DNA of 64,000 nucleotides, from NCBI GenBank assembly GCA_964645825.1, contig CAZXZY010000001.1, positions 17,362-81,361 of the forward strand, given 5' to 3'. The position numbers were made by a program, and so were the translations under genes. The notes under the pieces are model-generated. The model saw only the letters and a program-made list of their open reading frames with translations. It was not told the origin of the DNA and made no database searches. Below are positions 20,683 to 27,842 of this stretch, in pieces. Within the stretch, counting starts at the first letter, position 1. Every line of letters begins with the position of its first letter. This stretch comes from an uncultured Gammaproteobacteria bacterium (GTDB lineage Bacteria; Patescibacteriota; Patescibacteriia; UBA1558; GWA2-36-10).

Positions 20683-22380
20683 TTAAAATTTAACAACTTC
20701 TCCTGGCCCCAAAATATTTTTATCATCTTTTTTTTCTTCTTGTTTTGGGACATCTTTTTTAAACTCTGGCTTTACTTTAAGCGCTTCGGCTAAGGAAATA
20801 AACTCCTCTTTGTTATCTTCTTTTTTCTCTTCTGATTGACTAACTTTTTTGATACTAGAAGGAGAAGGAATTTTACCTTGCTTAGATAATTCTAAACACT
20901 TTTTACAATACACTGGTTTATTAGGATCTGGAATAAAGTTTATCTCTGTATGTGTGCCACAAAATGAGCAATCAACTTCTGCTAAAGGTTTCTTGATTCT
21001 AGTTTTTTTGTTAACTGGTTTTTTTTCAGAATTGCTACTTTGAGCTGTGACTGGGTATATTTTTTTAGCCGGTTTCTCTTCTGTTGCCGCTTCTTCGTGT
21101 TTATTTTCACTCCAACGAGTAATTCTCTCTTCAATTTCATGTCTAGGACTAGCATATCTTTCGCGAGAAACAGCGATCACTTTATCTTTAATTTCTGGAT
21201 TAACATAGCCTATATCTATTGGTGGTAAAGTAATAGCTGAAAATCCTTGTGAAGCTACACCATCGATCATTAATTTGAGATAAGTTTCATATTTAGTTAA
21301 ATTAACTAAATCGTATTGAGTAAAAGTAGGAAAAAATTCTTTTTCCAAAAATTCAGCATCAGTAGCACCAACTCTAAAAGTAACTATAGTGCCAACATTG
21401 CCAAAAACGGCAGCCGTAACCATTTCATCAACTTGTTCAATATATTGGTGAGCCAAAATTAAATTAAGACGATACTTACGCGCCTCGGATAAAATACCAG
21501 CAAATGATTCAGTGGCAAAATTTTGAAACTCATCAACATATAAATAAAAATCTTTACGTTCATTTTCTGGAATATTTACTCGACTCATAGCGGCTAATTG
21601 AATCTTGGTGATCATCATAGCACCTAATAAGGCCGAGTTATCTTCACCTACCCTACCTTTAGCCAAATTCATCAATAAGATTTTTTGATTATCCATGATT
21701 TCACGCATAGTAAAAGAAGATTTAGGTTGGCCCAAAATATTTCTAATCAAAGCAGAAGATAAGAATCGACCAACCTTATTTTGAATCGGTGCGATGGCTT
21801 CTGATTGAAATTTGTCCGGATACTTTGAGTATTCATCAACCCAAAAAGATTTGACTACTGGATCAGTAACTTGGTCAATTACTTTTTTTCTAAAAGGCTT
21901 ATCAACTAACATTCGCATGATGCCTAATAATGTAGAACCTGGATACTCTAATAAGGCAGAAATAGTATGATGTAAAACATATTCTAAACGAGGCCCCCAA
22001 GAGTCAGCCCAGATTTTTTTAAACACTCCAATCAAACCAGAAACTACCAAATGTCTTTCTGCTTCATTGACGTTTTCCAAAACATTAAAGGCTATGGGAA
22101 AATCCAAATCAGCTGGGTTAACATAAACCACATCATTAATACGATCAGCTGGAATATACTCAATAACTTTTTCTACTAAATCTCCATGTGGATCAATCAC
22201 GCAAACACCCTTGCCAGCCTGAATGTCCTGAATAATCATATTTTCCAAAACTGTCGATTTGCCCATGCCAGTTTTTCCAATAAAATACATATGGCGACGG
22301 CGGTCGTCAGTCTTGATACCAAACTTTGTTTGGGAATTACGAAAGTTTGTCTTAGCAAAAAAAGTTATATTTTGACTCAT
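20683..22380 (-). CDS. FtsK/HerA-superfamily P-loop ATPase (HerA/TraG-like) with Lys/Glu-rich tail and C-terminal zinc ribbon; split form
   Basis: Walker A GKTGMGKST, VIDPHGDL box, Walker B YLYVDEFQNF, ARKYRLNLILAHQ. CSFCG...CKKC near the C-terminus. Confidence 0.6.
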   Translation of the reverse strand: MSQNITFFAKTNFRNSQTKFGIKTDDRRRHMYFIGKTGMGKSTVLENMIIQDIQAGKGVCVIDPHGDLVEKVIEYIPADRINDVVYVNPADLDFPIAFNVLENVNEAERHLVVSGLIGVFKKIWADSWGPRLEYVLHHTISALLEYPGSTLLGIMRMLVDKPFRKKVIDQVTDPVVKSFWVDEYSKYPDKFQSEAIAPIQNKVGRFLSSALIRNILGQPKSSFTMREIMDNQKILLMNLAKGRVGEDNSALLGAMMITKIQLAAMSRVNIPENERKDFYLYVDEFQNFATESFAGILSEARKYRLNLILAHQYIEQVDEMVTAAVFGNVGTIVTFRVGATDAEFLEKEFFPTFTQYDLVNLTKYETYLKLMIDGVASQGFSAITLPPIDIGYVNPEIKDKVIAVSRERYASPRHEIEERITRWSENKHEEAATEEKPAKKIYPVTAQSSNSEKKPVNKKTRIKKPLAEVDCSFCGTHTEINFIPDPNKPVYCKKCLELSKQGKIPSPSSIKKVSQSEEKKEDNKEEFISLAEALKVKPEFKKDVPKQEEKKDDKNILGPGEVVKF

Positions 22381-22386
22381 ATATTA

Positions 22387-23916
22387 TTATATTGGTAGAT
22401 TAGTTGGCGGCCCTCCTTTTGTGCCCGAGGCATTGATAACATCGCTCTTTGGTAGTTTTACTGTTTCTACGTCTTCTTTTCTTTCAGTTTTGTCTTTAGC
22501 AAATCTATCTTCAAAGTAATCATTATCTAGATCTACTGTAAATTCAGGTTGTTTGTTTAGTTGTACTTTAAGATTCTCTGACTCAGATTCATCCAAATCA
22601 CTGATACCAAGAGAAGCTGGTAAACTTGAAGGTGCTTGAGATTTTTTGGTTTCTGTTCTTTTTAATAGTGGTGTTCGTATTTCCATACCAGGAAAATGCC
22701 ATAAAGTAGCTAGTTCTTCAGTGTTTAAAATAAAACTACTATGCCCAGCTGCACCACTACGGCCTTTGTATGCTTTAACTAATGCAGATTTACGTTTTTT
22801 TGCTCGATATTTAGTAAACCAATAATTAACTGAGGTTTTGGTTCTTGGATCAGGATAAAAACCATTTAAATTCAAGTCAGCAAACTGCTTAACGGCACCA
22901 AAGACTGACGAGACCGCTCTATTTGGTGAATAGTCTTCTAGGGGCGCAAGGTATATTAATCTAATTTTACACTCAAAACCCATCTTGGAAGCCTTATTCT
23001 GGATTGCTTCAATGCTATCTTTTTCACCTGGAGTCAAATGAAGCATCATGCTAGGCAGCTCATCTTTTTCATTGCTCTCTTTCCATAAAGGAAAAATAAA
23101 CTCGCCTATTTTATCCATGCTATTGGTAATCCAGTCAACTACTTCATTGGGTTTACTGGTTTTTTCTTTAATTTTTTTTCCAGCCAATTTTAAGGCCATG
23201 TTTTGAGATTCCTGAACCCATTCAAAACCAGTTGGCTTTACTAGAATTTGAAACCAAATTTGCTCACCAACATGAATTTTACTCATCGTTTCCAGTATCG
23301 CAGCCAAAGGATCTTTGTATTCACCACTAACCTTATCTTCAAAAGCAGGATAAGTTTTGATTGGAAAAGCTTGATGGGACACCGGAATTATTTCACTGCC
23401 CCATATATTGTATGTATCGTCTGGATAATCTTCTGGCGCCCAATCAACATAATCATCGACTTCAGTTATTTCTGCATCTGGATATTGTGAGTAAATAGAG
23501 CTTTCTACCACATCTCGATATTGAGATGGTGTACGGATCAAAAATTGAACATATCCATCAATACTGACAATTTCAAAAGAAAAAGACAACTGAAAAATAC
23601 CAGCCCAATAGTCATCTACTTTACTCAAAGGTGCATGAGCACCAGAAATAGTAGAAAATAATTGTTCTACTGCTTTTGGAGTTTGTTCATGCTCTTTGGG
23701 TATGTCAACAGCTAATAAAATAAACTTGTTGCTGGCAAACCATTTATTTTGTTTATTAAATAGCCACAACCAATATCCCTGAACAATAAAAAGAATAACA
23801 AATAAAACCCAGCCGCCATGACTAAAAAGATACCAGATAGCATAGGCTGGTCCTTGATCGGCTGCGGCAAAAAGTGGCGCGAAGTCGATAACGAAATTTA
23901 TTATTTCTATCTGCAT
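22387..23916 (-). CDS. membrane-anchored partner of the split ATPase (homologous to the N-terminal half of the fused 820-aa paralog)
   Basis: N-terminal TM (WVLFVILFIVQGYWLWLF). Conserved IKTYPAFEDK segment shared with the fused paralog. Ends GGPPTNLPI, matching the fused protein's SPPANIPT junction. Confidence 0.5.
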   Translation of the reverse strand: MQIEIINFVIDFAPLFAAADQGPAYAIWYLFSHGGWVLFVILFIVQGYWLWLFNKQNKWFASNKFILLAVDIPKEHEQTPKAVEQLFSTISGAHAPLSKVDDYWAGIFQLSFSFEIVSIDGYVQFLIRTPSQYRDVVESSIYSQYPDAEITEVDDYVDWAPEDYPDDTYNIWGSEIIPVSHQAFPIKTYPAFEDKVSGEYKDPLAAILETMSKIHVGEQIWFQILVKPTGFEWVQESQNMALKLAGKKIKEKTSKPNEVVDWITNSMDKIGEFIFPLWKESNEKDELPSMMLHLTPGEKDSIEAIQNKASKMGFECKIRLIYLAPLEDYSPNRAVSSVFGAVKQFADLNLNGFYPDPRTKTSVNYWFTKYRAKKRKSALVKAYKGRSGAAGHSSFILNTEELATLWHFPGMEIRTPLLKRTETKKSQAPSSLPASLGISDLDESESENLKVQLNKQPEFTVDLDNDYFEDRFAKDKTERKEDVETVKLPKSDVINASGTKGGPPTNLPI

Positions 23917-23979
23917 TCAAAAATAATTATTTTTATTTTTAGCTATAGATATTATAGCTTATTATACCATTTTTTTAAA

Positions 23980-24021
23980 GCTAGAAACAAAATAACTCGC
24001 TATTAAAAAATGTTTAGCGAG
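23980..24021 (-). terminator. putative terminator of the sigma-r4 protein gene
   Basis: Hairpin ctcgcta-N13-tagcgag plus U-rich tail. Confidence 0.4.
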
Positions 24022-24056
24022 CCATTCTGTCATTATAAGTATGAGAGTGAAGCATT

Positions 24057-25160
24057 TTAAGCTTCTTTTAGTAAATATCTACCTTTTTCATCTCTAGCAA
24101 AACGATCTTTATTCATTAAGGCTAGGGCAATAGTGGTTTCTTTAATCAACCTCTTGTCTAGAACGGCAGCAATAATTTCTTTTTTGCTCATTGGGCGGCC
24201 AATTTCATTTAAAATTTCAGCAATTACATCAGCAACTACACCAGGTTTATAACCCCATTCTTTTAGGGCATAAATACCACGGCCCACTAAAACATATTTT
24301 TTATCTAAGATTAATTCATTGTGAATGGTAGCTGGATAAGCTTTACGTTGATCAAATTCCATCTTATTGATAGTTTCTGCGATCTCAGTAAAATGCAATG
24401 GCTTACTTTCTTTACGCAAGACAATATAGATTTTGTCATTCATGCGTTTTGGAGTGATACTTGGCCATTCGGCTAAACCCCACTCTTCGTAAGGATTATT
24501 TTCAATCTTTTTGGTAATGTCCAAAAAGTTAACTACCATTTTATCATTTAAATCATCATTGCTAGAAAAAAAGTTGGCTTGAGTGATTTTTTTGATCAAG
24601 TCTTCTAAAATAACTGTATCTTTATGCTCATGAATCAATTGACGAATGTCATCAATAACCTTATCAAAAAAGTCGATAGAAGCTTCTGGTGTTTTCCAAA
24701 AACTATAAACTTTTTTACTTTCTTTTACAAAATGAAAACGATGATTTAAGAGTTGGTTCAAGACAAAGTTAATAGCAGCTTTATTTTCAGCTGTTGCTCC
24801 AGGCACAACTAACAATTCTTTAATCAAGTTTTCTTCCGACATCATGCCACCATGCTCATTTAAGATAGCATTGGCAATATCTTCAATCTGTTTCAAGAAG
24901 TTTTGATCAAAGTTTTTGATAATTTTCTTTAGTGCACTGTTTTCAATTTGACGTACTCTTTCACGAGTAATACTGTATTGACGGCCAATTTCTTCTAGTG
25001 TTTTTTTCTTAAAGCCGGCCAATCCATGTCGCATCTTCAAAATCTCTTGCTCACGTTCAGATAATACCTCCAAAATACGCTCAACAGTTTGAGCGGGATT
25101 GAACTCTGACAAATGAGAGAGTTGTTGTGCAGTCATAACTTGGTCTAAAATAGAACCCAT
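24057..25160 (-). CDS. sigma-70 region-4 domain protein with winged-helix-like C-terminus (not a complete sigma factor)
   Basis: Residues 25-85, LSEREQEILKMRHGL...TLEEIGRQYSITRERVRQIENSALKKI, match region 4.1/4.2. There is no region 2 or 3. The C-terminal GRGIYALKEWGY...KKEIIAAVL resembles HARE-HTH. The gene is monocistronic, with its own promoter and terminator. Confidence 0.6.
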   Translation of the reverse strand: MGSILDQVMTAQQLSHLSEFNPAQTVERILEVLSEREQEILKMRHGLAGFKKKTLEEIGRQYSITRERVRQIENSALKKIIKNFDQNFLKQIEDIANAILNEHGGMMSEENLIKELLVVPGATAENKAAINFVLNQLLNHRFHFVKESKKVYSFWKTPEASIDFFDKVIDDIRQLIHEHKDTVILEDLIKKITQANFFSSNDDLNDKMVVNFLDITKKIENNPYEEWGLAEWPSITPKRMNDKIYIVLRKESKPLHFTEIAETINKMEFDQRKAYPATIHNELILDKKYVLVGRGIYALKEWGYKPGVVADVIAEILNEIGRPMSKKEIIAAVLDKRLIKETTIALALMNKDRFARDEKGRYLLKEA

Positions 25161-25209
25161 AAGTTTGTTTCATTTATTTAAATCTCTTCCATAATAACAT
25201 ATTTATCAG

Positions 25210-25248
25210 AAAAAGTCAACCCTATTAACGGTCTGTCAATAGGGTTGA
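25210..25248 (-). terminator. intrinsic terminator after secF
   Basis: 10-bp stem caaccctatt / aatagggttg plus U-run. Confidence 0.55.
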
Positions 25249-25273: not shown

Positions 25274-26173
25274 TTAAGCTTTTTTGTTCCAAAGAGATAA
25301 TAGTGGCGAAGCAACGAAGATTGAGGAATAAGTACCAATAATGACACCTAAAATCAAGGCTAAAACGAAGTATTTAATACTCTCTCCGCCAAATATATAG
25401 ATAGCTAGCAATACAAATAGGGTTGTTACCGAGGTATTTATAGATCGGACAATAGTTTGGTTCACGCTAAGGTTGACAATTTCATCAAAAGCTTGGTTTT
25501 GTACTTTAAATAGGTTTTCACGAGTTCTATCAAAAGTAACTATGGTATCATGAATGGAAAAACCTAAAATAGTAAGCAAAGCAGTTACGAATAAGGTATC
25601 AATCTCAACATTGGCCACTTGACCCAAAATTGCAAATATACCAGTAACAATTAAAATATCGTGTGCCAAAGCAATGATTGCTGAAATACCGTATTTCCAA
25701 GAAGCAACTGGCTTAGAAACCTGTCTAAAAGCATAAGCAATATAAAAGACAATAAATAATAACACTATAACAATGGCTTCAATGGCCTTGCTTTTTAATT
25801 CTTGACCAATAGTTGGCCCAATAGATTCAAATCTTAATTCAGTAAGAGCCGCAGCTTGTTCATCAATTTGAATATTTTTTAGATTACTTAAAATCTTTTG
25901 ATGCACATCTTCACTGACGTCTTCAAAACGTAAAAAGAAATTTTGTTCTCCAGTAGGCTGAATACGGATACTTTGTAATTCTAAGGGCGTTAGCGACTCC
26001 TCTACTTGAGCGATACTTGGTCGGGTTGTTTCATAGGATACTTCTAATAAACTACCACCAGTAAAATCAATGCCTAGTTTTAAACCAAAAATGGCTAGCG
26101 CGGCAATGCTCAGTGCTACTAAAATACCAGAAAAAGTAAACCAGTATTTTTTATTTTTAATAATGTTATACAT
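25274..26173 (-). CDS. secF: protein translocase subunit SecF
   Basis: SecD/SecF family with 6 TM segments; follows secD. Confidence 0.9.
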   Translation of the reverse strand: MYNIIKNKKYWFTFSGILVALSIAALAIFGLKLGIDFTGGSLLEVSYETTRPSIAQVEESLTPLELQSIRIQPTGEQNFFLRFEDVSEDVHQKILSNLKNIQIDEQAAALTELRFESIGPTIGQELKSKAIEAIVIVLLFIVFYIAYAFRQVSKPVASWKYGISAIIALAHDILIVTGIFAILGQVANVEIDTLFVTALLTILGFSIHDTIVTFDRTRENLFKVQNQAFDEIVNLSVNQTIVRSINTSVTTLFVLLAIYIFGGESIKYFVLALILGVIIGTYSSIFVASPLLSLWNKKA

Positions 26174-26174
26174 A

Positions 26175-27842
26175 TTATTGATTATTCTTTTCTTTATTTA
26201 TACCAAATAGCCATAACTTATCCTCTATTTTACGTTTTACAATCATGCGTAAAAAAGTACGTGTCACAGTAATAGCAGAGAACATAGAGATGATAATACC
26301 AATCGCTAAAGTGATGGCAAACCCTTTGACAACAGATGTTCCAAACCAAGCTAAGATCAAACAAGTAATAATGGATGAAATATTTGAATCACGAATAGAT
26401 GTCCAAGCTCTTTGAAAACCATTTTCAACAGATGATGTTAAACTACGGCCTTCGTATAATTCTTCTTTTGTTCTTTCGAAGATAAGAATATTAGCATCTA
26501 CTGCCATACCAACCGACAAAATAAATCCAGCTACACCAGCTAAAGTCATGGTCACTGGGATCATTTCAAATAAAGCTAGTGTGACCAAAGAATACACAGC
26601 TAAAGCCAAAACCGCAATCAATCCTGGTAATCTATAATAAATTAGCATAAACAATGCTGCTGCAAGTAAGCCAATAATACCAGCTATTAAACTTTTTTCT
26701 ACTGAAATATCACCCAAAGAAGCACCAACTGTTTGCTGGCTGATTAATTCGATTGGTACTGGCAAAGCACCTGAATTTAAATCTCTAACCATATCTTTGG
26801 CTTCTTTTATACCAAAACTACCAGAAATAACAGCTCGCCCATCTTTGATTGCTTCTTGAACAACTGGCTCAGAAATTTTGAATCCATCCAAAAAAATAGC
26901 CACTGGTTTTCCAACATTAGCCTCAGTAATAGAAGCAAAGAGATCTTTTCCTTCGCTATCAAATTCTAATCCAATCAATGGAGCGTTGGTATTTTGATCA
27001 AATTCTAAGTTTGCTCGTTTAAGATGACGACCACCTAAATCAGTATTTTCCCAATTGATATTAGCATAATCAGCGTTTGGTTTTTGAATTAAGATGTGAG
27101 CGGCTCGTATTTCTGTCTCACCAGAATCATTTAAACGTTCTTCAAGTTTTTTTATAATATGATAACCAAATTGTGACTCAACTAGTTCTGGAGAAATTTC
27201 TCCAATTTTTAAATCTTCAAAAATAGCTTGTTCAAATTCTGGTACAAATTGTCCACGTGTTACCCATGGTAATTCACCACCATCAACGGACGAACCCAAA
27301 TCTTCACTAAATTCTTGAGCAAGCGCTGCAAAATCCTCTCCTGCTAAAACCTGTTCTAACAAACCTTGCGCTGTATCTTTTTCAGGATTTAATATTTCTT
27401 CTTCTGTTTCTTCAACAATTGGAGCGCCGACAGTTTTGAATTCTAATAAAGGTGTAGCGCCAATCATTTCAATAGCTTCACTTACATCTTGGACGCCAGC
27501 TAGCTCAACAATGATACGATAGTGATTTCCACTATAATTTGTTTGAATAGTTGGTTCAGATACACCATAAGCGTTTACACGACGCTCAATAACGTCTCTG
27601 ACGCCCTCCACGGACTCTTTTTTGTCTGCATCGGCAAAGTTATCAACGTTAGCTTCATAGACCAGATGAGTGCCGCCTTGTAAATCTAAACCTAAATGTA
27701 TTCTAAATTTAGAAAACCAGCCAGAATTACTTGGCCAGACCACAAGAGCGCTAAAAATTGCCAAAATCATGATACCAGCAAAAGCTAGACGTACTTGGTT
27801 TTTAGTAATAGCTACTTTTCGAGGTAATTTAGTTTTTGTCAT
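26175..27842 (-). CDS. secD: protein translocase subunit SecD with inserted parvulin-like PPIase domain
   Basis: SecD TM1 and periplasmic head. Residues about 160-255 read GEDFAALAQEFSEDLGSSVDGGELPWVTRGQFVPEFEQAIFEDLKIGEISPELVESQFGYHIIKK, a PpiC/parvulin signature. C-terminal 6-TM SecD core follows. Confidence 0.85.
   Translation of the reverse strand: MTKTKLPRKVAITKNQVRLAFAGIMILAIFSALVVWPSNSGWFSKFRIHLGLDLQGGTHLVYEANVDNFADADKKESVEGVRDVIERRVNAYGVSEPTIQTNYSGNHYRIIVELAGVQDVSEAIEMIGATPLLEFKTVGAPIVEETEEEILNPEKDTAQGLLEQVLAGEDFAALAQEFSEDLGSSVDGGELPWVTRGQFVPEFEQAIFEDLKIGEISPELVESQFGYHIIKKLEERLNDSGETEIRAAHILIQKPNADYANINWENTDLGGRHLKRANLEFDQNTNAPLIGLEFDSEGKDLFASITEANVGKPVAIFLDGFKISEPVVQEAIKDGRAVISGSFGIKEAKDMVRDLNSGALPVPIELISQQTVGASLGDISVEKSLIAGIIGLLAAALFMLIYYRLPGLIAVLALAVYSLVTLALFEMIPVTMTLAGVAGFILSVGMAVDANILIFERTKEELYEGRSLTSSVENGFQRAWTSIRDSNISSIITCLILAWFGTSVVKGFAITLAIGIIISMFSAITVTRTFLRMIVKRKIEDKLWLFGINKEKNNQ

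Follow-up and report, generated by a model that had tools for sequence, protein, structure and literature searches.

What does region 4 of a primary sigma factor do when it is carried by a protein that has no other part of a sigma factor? The question is raised by a gene at positions 24057 to 25160 of a 64,000-nucleotide stretch of contig CAZXZY010000001.1, hereafter the window, from an uncultured member of the Candidate Phyla Radiation (CPR; Patescibacteria). All gene, module, promoter and terminator coordinates given below refer to the window and lie on its minus strand. The gene encodes a 367-residue protein in which a sigma-70 region 4 is followed by four predicted winged-helix modules. 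This protein is neither a sigma factor nor RNA polymerase's delta subunit. A possible answer, and the one that we tentatively prefer, is that it is an essential, probably abundant, Patescibacteria-specific promoter-DNA-binding factor, a "sigma-4 in trans", whose mechanism we infer from its domains, its conservation and the promoter of its own gene.

A primary-sigma region 4 without the rest of sigma

The open reading frame (ORF) begins with an ATG in the ORF list and is also supported by identical proteins in public databases. An in-frame stop lies four codons 5' of the ATG, and several more occur in the 113-nt gap that separates the gene from secF. Because in-frame stops fill this stretch, no extension encoding regions 2 and 3 is possible, and a mis-called start that concealed such an extension is excluded. 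The original prediction, made from the letters of the sequence, held that the N-terminus is a sigma-70 region 4.1/4.2, that regions 2 and 3 are missing, and that a HARE-HTH or delta-like winged helix lies towards the end of the protein. Profile searches bore out each of these points. Sigma70_r4 (PF04545) matched residues 30-80 with an E-value of 4.7e-16 (58.5 bits, well above the cutoff of 24.1), while HARE-HTH (PF05066) matched residues 244-299 in two stretches, also significantly (E = 2.1e-11; 44.5 bits against a cutoff of 25.9), and the NCBIfam model for the delta subunit of low-GC bacteria, TIGR04567, scored 47.9 bits against a cutoff of 42 over residues 239-302. Pfam returned no match to sigma region 2 (PF04542) or region 3 in the protein, and the RpoD and RpoS models of NCBIfam aligned to it by their C-terminal ends only. 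A test for region 2 showed it to be absent, and the protein is for this reason no sigma factor; without regions 1.2, 2 and 3 it has neither the core-binding nor the -10 function of a primary sigma factor, and its region 4 is N-terminal where that of sigma is C-terminal.

The domain itself (residues 22-83; 24912 to 25097) matches region 4 of primary sigma-70 factors (RpoD/SigA) over its full length and has the recognition helix TRERxRQIE in common with them. When a profile of the family was run against the sequences in the PDB, the only chains recovered were those containing primary-sigma region 4, at E-values of about 1e-18 and down to 5e-19. Identity to solved SigA region 4 structures was 34-58%, and in Foldseek the domain superposed on 1ku7, 1rio and 3n97 at 1.4-1.8 Å. 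By these alignments it is closest to region 4 of the group-1 sigma factors.

An indication of what region 4 does in this setting comes from the pattern of conservation, which, like the mean charges given below, was calculated over 48 distant members of the family (33-51% identical). Residues T65, R66, E67, R68, R70, Q71, I72 and E73 are 94-100% conserved, and so are T54, L55, E56 and R44. We take the first group to be equivalent to E. coli sigma-70 T583, R584, E585, R586, R588, Q589, I590 and E591, and the others to T572, L573, E574 and R562, respectively. With this numbering, the conserved residues are, as far as alignment can tell, those of the -35 recognition helix and those that contact the backbone. 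The positions of E555, E575, K593 and K597, the last two presumably activator contacts in sigma factors, are near-fixed in a comparison set of sigma factors and variable in the family; the comparison set was retrieved with the pattern TRER[VI]RQIE, which fixes its recognition-helix columns by construction, and the family columns carry no such constraint. This is the residue pattern that would be expected of a domain that still reads a TTGACA-like hexamer and no longer does so within the holoenzyme.

Four winged-helix modules of opposite character

After region 4 the original prediction saw some 280 residues of unknown sequence. A segment of that kind does follow, and an AlphaFold2 model built from 36 homologues (predicted local distance difference test score 87.9; predicted template-modelling score 0.74) resolves it into four winged-helix modules, the last two of which are basic and of the HARE type. 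The first two, WH1 (residues 86-156; 24693 to 24905) and WH2 (residues 162-229; 24474 to 24677), are winged-helix-like and weakly conserved (0.33 for WH1 and 0.33-0.35 for the pair); WH1 is neutral to acidic, with a mean net charge of -2.6, and WH2 is acidic, with a mean of -1.6 in the family and -7 in the protein encoded here. WH3 (residues 240-303; 24252 to 24443) is the HARE-HTH domain. It is the most conserved module of the family (0.70, compared with 0.55 for WH4 and 0.54 for region 4), it is basic (mean +3.5), and the model gives it a three-helix and beta-hairpin topology. WH4 (residues 305-364; 24069 to 24248), also modelled as three helices and a beta hairpin, has a mean charge of +4.7 and is probably the second HARE-HTH stretch, the Pfam coordinates covering residues 244-299 alone. 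The mean charge of region 4 is +4.3, and the two C-terminal modules of the 367-residue protein carry +4 and +3. By comparison, the N-terminal domain of B. subtilis delta, taken from a sequence that matches 6ZFB_D and 7F75_L exactly over residues 1-90, carries -10. The charges of region 4, HARE-HTH and WH4 thus fit nucleic-acid binding.

Fold searches were required to place the middle and C-terminal parts of the protein, as a profile of the HARE pair found nothing significant among PDB sequences, and sequence searches of the PDB with the middle or the C-terminal part alone gave designed repeat proteins or noise only. No domain resembling the C-terminal domain of the alpha subunit was seen in the model or in the fold searches. 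The protein is a member of the HARE-HTH superfamily in which HARE-HTH is combined with a sigma-derived helix-turn-helix. HARE-HTH domains are reportedly predicted to bind DNA, possibly modified DNA. The abstract of Aravind and Iyer (2012, Cell Cycle 11:119) is said to mention bacterial proteins that combine features of the RNA polymerase alpha subunit and of sigma factors, and the architecture described here may overlap with these proteins.

Residues 1-21 (25098 to 25160), which precede region 4 and for which model confidence is low, contain an S-I-L-D motif (I4, L5 and D6) that is invariant in members of the Parcubacteria/Komeilibacteria type and is not present in the Saccharibacteria members that were read. 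It may be a short interaction motif.

A family of the Patescibacteria, once fused to a complete sigma factor

The full-length family extends across the CPR, the radiation to which the source organism itself belongs. The identical protein is present on at least 24 public contigs, and homologues with both Pfam domains number in the thousands, with lengths of about 340-400 residues and with region 4 and HARE-HTH in collinear order. In a library of representatives at 50% identity, 604 clusters matched at E-values of 1e-30 or below, and among the matches listed (150 of the 604 clusters) nearly all were 335-410 residues long. The source organisms that are named include Komeilibacteria, Parcubacteria, Nomurabacteria, Saccharibacteria, Microgenomates and "Patescibacteria group". 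The architecture is already catalogued in databases, where such proteins are called "sigma factor-like helix-turn-helix DNA-binding protein", "HARE-type protein" or, at JGI, "RNA polymerase delta subunit"; in a literature search for HARE-HTH together with sigma, CPR, Saccharibacteria or the delta subunit, no paper came up in which this family, referred to here as the r4/HARE family, is discussed. At least 15 full-length loci were located in the species genomes of GTDB, and among the matches listed all belong to CPR (the lineages named are Doudna-, Peregrini-, Parcu-, Sacchari-, Kaiser- and Falkowbacteria and Paceibacterota) or to unclassified metagenome-assembled genomes; the search pattern TRER[VI]RQIE is common to sigma factors and region 4 matches saturate such a search, which leaves absence of the family outside CPR unproven. 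Within the window, no other ORF matches the 367-residue protein, and neither a paralogue nor rpoD was found.

An origin in phage or in a defence system was considered and rejected. The matches from PADLOC and PHROGs (MzaA and phage sigma factors) involve the region 4 segment alone, the C-terminal module was found in just 1 of 2.9 million viral contigs, and no defence genes flank the gene. MzaA of the MZA anti-phage system (NF041931, PDLC02203), which has only the region 4 match in common with the family, is by contrast a long, complete sigma-family protein encoded in a defence operon.

One lineage has joined the family protein to a sigma factor. The 800-residue protein P0197 consists of a complete RpoD-like sigma factor, with regions 2, 3 and 4, followed by a whole family protein with a region 4 and HARE-HTH of its own. 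Five contigs carry the identical sequence, and those listed, three in number, stem from different samples; the fusion gene lies directly after parB (positions 6001-8403 of locus L001, and likewise in L002 and L003). The fusion argues for a family protein that works beside sigma. It also bears on what region 4 contacts: since the single beta-flap would be taken by region 4 of the sigma part, the second region 4 most likely contacts DNA, and a flap-bound role for it in the fusion is unlikely.

A probable member was scored as essential in Southlakia epibionticum

Architecture, conservation, charge pattern, distribution, promoter and neighbourhood were observed in this analysis; the evidence for essentiality comes from the literature. 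In the study of Southlakia epibionticum by Wang et al. (2023, Cell 186:4803, PMC10633639), the main text is silent on SEML1_0294, which appears in Tables S1 and S2 as a protein of 349 residues with PF04545 at 27-72 and PF05066 at 225-283. Its domains according to DPAM are one tri-helical domain derived from sigma-70 and three winged domains, one of which is assigned to 7F75 chain L, that is, delta, and it is flagged as "core family" and "Patescibacteria enriched" (PMC10633639). The PROKKA name that it carries there, "RpoS" (PMC10633639), is a mislabel. Transposon sequencing scored the gene as essential in all three passages (ES/ES/ES), with 24 insertions in the input DNA falling to 1, 1 and 2, whereas SEML1_0293, which encodes the adjacent TrwB-like ATPase, was scored as non-essential (NE) (PMC10633639). 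Sigma region 2 (PF04542) occurs once in the Pfam table of this organism, in RpoD (SEML1_0063), which has a region 4 of its own, and the alpha subunit retains its C-terminal domain (PMC10633639). We regard SEML1_0294 as an architecture-matched member of the r4/HARE family, given its length, its Pfam architecture and the abundance of Saccharibacteria members.

A predicted consensus promoter in loci where these are rare

The gene was originally described as monocistronic, with a promoter and a terminator of its own, and in the 64-kb window it does look so; the promoter and terminator calls made here are matches to sequence patterns, and both are to be read as predicted rather than as transcript data. 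The putative promoter (25191 to 25219) is TTGACT-17 nt-TATTAT with a TG extension, a near-consensus sigma-70 type that a scan scored at 10 of 12 matches with the TG. A second hexamer, TTGACA (25234 to 25239, by direct reading), lies 20 nt 5' of the -35 and inside a terminator-like hairpin of 14 bp that follows secF (25216 to 25248; predicted folding free energy -20.1 kcal/mol, z -6.05) and overlaps the -35. The hexamer at 25214-25219 is both the end of the 3' arm of this hairpin and the -35, and terminator and promoter are therefore interleaved. A fixed spacing of paired TTGACA hexamers was rejected as a family feature, spacings of 11, 20, 30 and 87 nt having been seen. Downstream of the stop codon is a terminator-like hairpin of 16 bp with a U-rich 3' arm and tail (23987 to 24030; -19.1 kcal/mol, z -6.67), which the terminator scan did not report, probably on account of its loop of 12 nt, the scan allowing no more than 8 nt.

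The promoter is a feature of the family. TTGAC(A/T)-N17-TGnTAnnnT precedes the family gene in 11 of 13 CPR loci with an upstream gap of at least 60 nt, compared with 8 of 93 other genes from the same loci, crudely called (Fisher p = 1.8e-8), and the motif ends 28-95 nt before the ATG. TTGAC alone occurs within 150 nt upstream of all 13 family genes and of 12 of the 93 others. In the window only three intergenic sites on the coding strand have the form TTGAC-N17-19-TAnnnT, one of them at the gene studied here; a protein whose -35-reading helix is invariant is thus encoded by one of the few genes that have a consensus -35 themselves. Consensus -35 hexamers are rare both in the window and in loci L006-L032, where many of the intergenic regions that were read have an extended -10 (TGnTAnnnT) and no TTGAC -35. 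The consensus promoter could mean very high expression, autoregulation by occlusion of the -35, or both.

A proposed promoter-DNA-binding factor acting beside sigma

The original prediction offered three possible functions: a regulator that binds -35 elements, an anti-sigma-like decoy, and an RNA polymerase accessory factor. The invariant -35 helix and the basic HARE modules favour a DNA-reading factor, as judged from sequence and charge, and an anti-sigma decoy or an acidic, delta-like subunit would fit less well. In the mechanism that we propose, the N-terminal primary-sigma region 4 would read -35-type TTGACA hexamers in trans, and the two basic HARE-type winged helices would hold adjacent DNA, or possibly RNA polymerase. 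The acidic and poorly conserved WH1 and WH2 may form a spacer or a protein-contact module between them. Bound in this way, the protein, which would be either abundant or under tight control, would compete with the housekeeping sigma factor, or cooperate with it, at the minority of CPR promoters that have a good -35, its own included, and the outcome would be negative autoregulation and a global effect on initiation.

Several points weigh against this proposal. The HARE-HTH domain passes the cutoff of the delta model, and delta docks this domain on the beta' shelf and jaw, not on DNA (PMC11156646). A general role in transcription leaves unexplained the strict adjacency of the gene to a VirB4/T4CP-like motor (T4CP, type IV coupling protein), which is described below. 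The link to SEML1_0294, and with it essentiality, is a probable one, drawn by length and Pfam architecture. Finally, the conserved consensus promoter may signify high expression alone, and the promoter statistic rests on crude gene calls.

A more ambitious version, which we put forward as doubtful, is that the protein is a general initiation factor particular to the Patescibacteria, with a capacity for -35 recognition that was copied from sigma into a separate protein. Anchored by HARE domains that possibly sense methylation, such a factor would select among CPR promoters that mostly lack a -35 and would regulate its own gene, and it may in addition link the membrane motor next to it with transcription or DNA handling. 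Much of bacterial diversity belongs to the Patescibacteria, whose genomes are tiny. If the proposal is correct, the r4/HARE protein is a core part of transcription control in these bacteria and a rare case of a sigma domain outside a sigma factor. Genetic manipulation of Saccharibacteria has become possible, which opens the question to direct tests.

A possible accessory subunit comparable to delta

The protein might instead be an accessory subunit of RNA polymerase, the CPR counterpart of delta, with HARE-HTH docked on beta' and region 4 on the beta-flap tip or on upstream DNA, where it would modulate sigma binding, promoter selectivity or recycling. We think this unlikely, even though a HARE-type winged helix is common to the protein and to the delta subunit (RpoE, TIGR04567) of Firmicutes. 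Delta's N-terminal domain docks between the shelf and the jaw of beta', and the effect of the subunit is exerted by its acidic tail (PMC11156646). That tail, the functional hallmark of delta, is missing from the r4/HARE protein, which ends three residues after its last winged helix and has no polyanionic extension. Moreover, its HARE module is basic (+4) where the delta domain is strongly acidic, is duplicated, and is preceded by region 4 and two further winged helices. With no acidic tail and with a HARE charge of the opposite sign, the protein does not qualify as a delta subunit. The family is also found in Patescibacteria, not Firmicutes, and was scored as essential in S. epibionticum; B. 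subtilis, by contrast, can do without delta. The geometry is likewise unfavourable, as the beta' shelf and jaw belong to the downstream face, and the flap and the -35 are a long way off (PMC11156646). Binding to the flap, for its part, does not require the invariant DNA-reading residues of region 4, and in the natural fusion the flap would already be occupied by region 4 of the sigma part.

The neighbouring membrane motor

The gene stands in a conserved neighbourhood. Upstream are secD (26175-27842) and secF (25274-26173), which together span 25274 to 27842 and are frequently conserved; downstream are a gene for a DUF8128 membrane protein that resembles the N-terminal domain of VirB4 (22387 to 23916) and, as second neighbour, one for a TrwB/VirD4-like ATPase (20683 to 22380; Pfam TrwB_AAD_bind, TraG-D_C, DUF87 and zf_Tbcl_2). 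The order secD, secF, r4/HARE gene, DUF8128 gene, ATPase gene recurs at 46% identity. A DUF8128 homologue is directly next, on the same strand, in the window and in 15 of 17 other loci with downstream sequence, and the ATPase gene follows it in most loci. The DUF8128-linked loci span Parcubacteria to Saccharibacteria at 32-41% identity, with stop-to-stop frames that in some cases abut or overlap, and six pairs of consecutive NCBI locus tags confirm the adjacency. The exceptions are a Peregrinibacteria locus (L016) and the sigma-fusion lineage (L001); the contigs of two distant representatives (P0243 and P0218) were too short for gene context.

This adjacency suggests another possible function, as a DNA-binding adaptor or dedicated regulator of the DUF8128 protein and its ATPase, comparable to TrwA or TraM, or as a repressor of a toxic motor. 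TrwA and TraM bind DNA and work with coupling proteins, and like the r4/HARE protein, for which DNA binding is predicted, they are encoded directly upstream of a TrwB/VirD4-like ATPase. Their folds, however, are ribbon-helix-helix or helical-bundle folds rather than sigma-4 and winged helices, the r4/HARE gene is usually a separate transcription unit, and the Pfam tables of the neighbouring genes hold no relaxase domain. A repressor of a toxic gene would fit the S. epibionticum data, in which the family gene is essential and the ATPase gene is not. The T4CP-like genes of Patescibacteria, moreover, are mostly unlinked to virB4 and may have been exapted (PMC12102498).

The intergenic regions make this explanation rather improbable. 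In the 13 loci that were read, the gap between the r4/HARE gene and the first ATG of the DUF8128 gene is 36-400 nt, and it often includes a terminator hairpin as well as a separate promoter of the extended -10 type; because of these, the two genes appear to be mostly separate transcription units, and the arrangement is found in most lineages. The DUF8128 promoter of the window is of the extended -10 type without a TTGAC -35. A local operator for the r4/HARE protein at the DUF8128 promoter is unsupported, as only one of the 13 intergenic regions (L014) contains TTGAC, the hexamer being located 5' of the family gene instead. A simple motor adaptor is further contradicted by the transposon data, because a partner ATPase that is dispensable cannot account for the essentiality of the r4/HARE gene, and the adjacency is missing from the sigma-fusion lineage and from the Peregrinibacteria locus. 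Whatever its meaning for the proposed promoter-binding function, the link to a possibly "exapted" VirB4/T4CP-like motor is a second lead.

Two observations concern the promoter and the products of these neighbours. Just 3' of the DUF8128 extended -10 (23961-23969) is a perfect inverted repeat, AGCTATA-N5-TATAGCT (23941-23959), which could be an operator or a hairpin of the 5' leader. At the C-terminus of the ATPase is a treble-clef zinc finger (PF23477, zf_Tbcl_2; residues 467-497), which is unusual for coupling proteins and recurs in relatives (L004, L005, L008 and L009).

Other explanations

The protein could also be a nucleoid-associated or chromosome-organising protein that coats or bridges DNA by means of as many as five modules of the helix-turn-helix type, of which three are basic, its region 4 serving as a generic helix-turn-helix. 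This is improbable, since a generic binder has no need of base-contacting -35 residues that are invariant across the radiation, and the sigma fusion points to transcription.

Split sigma factors exist in Bacillus and in some phages, and in SigO-RsoA of B. subtilis, as here, -35 recognition resides on a polypeptide without region 2, although that system lacks the four extra winged helices. That the protein, which has a region 4 without regions 2 and 3, is half of such a two-subunit sigma factor with region 2 supplied by a separate small protein is very improbable: no second region 4 was found in the 64-kb window (a region 2 in its other ORFs was not looked for), the compared loci show no conserved small ORF next to the family gene, no region-2 partner was found in these loci or in the S. 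epibionticum table, where the only region 2 is that of RpoD (PMC10633639), and the natural fusion joins the family protein to a complete sigma factor and not to a fragment with region 2 only.

Other features of the window

The window has a GC content of 34% and an extreme coding-strand bias. The minus strand has 54 of its 55 ORFs of at least 120 codons, and of the two ORFs on the plus strand one overlaps a gene on the minus strand. The DUF8128 protein and the ATPase (20683-23916) both match phrog_5156, a protein group of 824 residues and unknown function, which means that phage or prophage proteins include a fused version. SecD (26175-27842) has an inserted PpiC-type rotamase (peptidyl-prolyl isomerase) domain (PF00639/PF13616), which is also present in the SecD proteins of three related loci (L004, L006 and L008).

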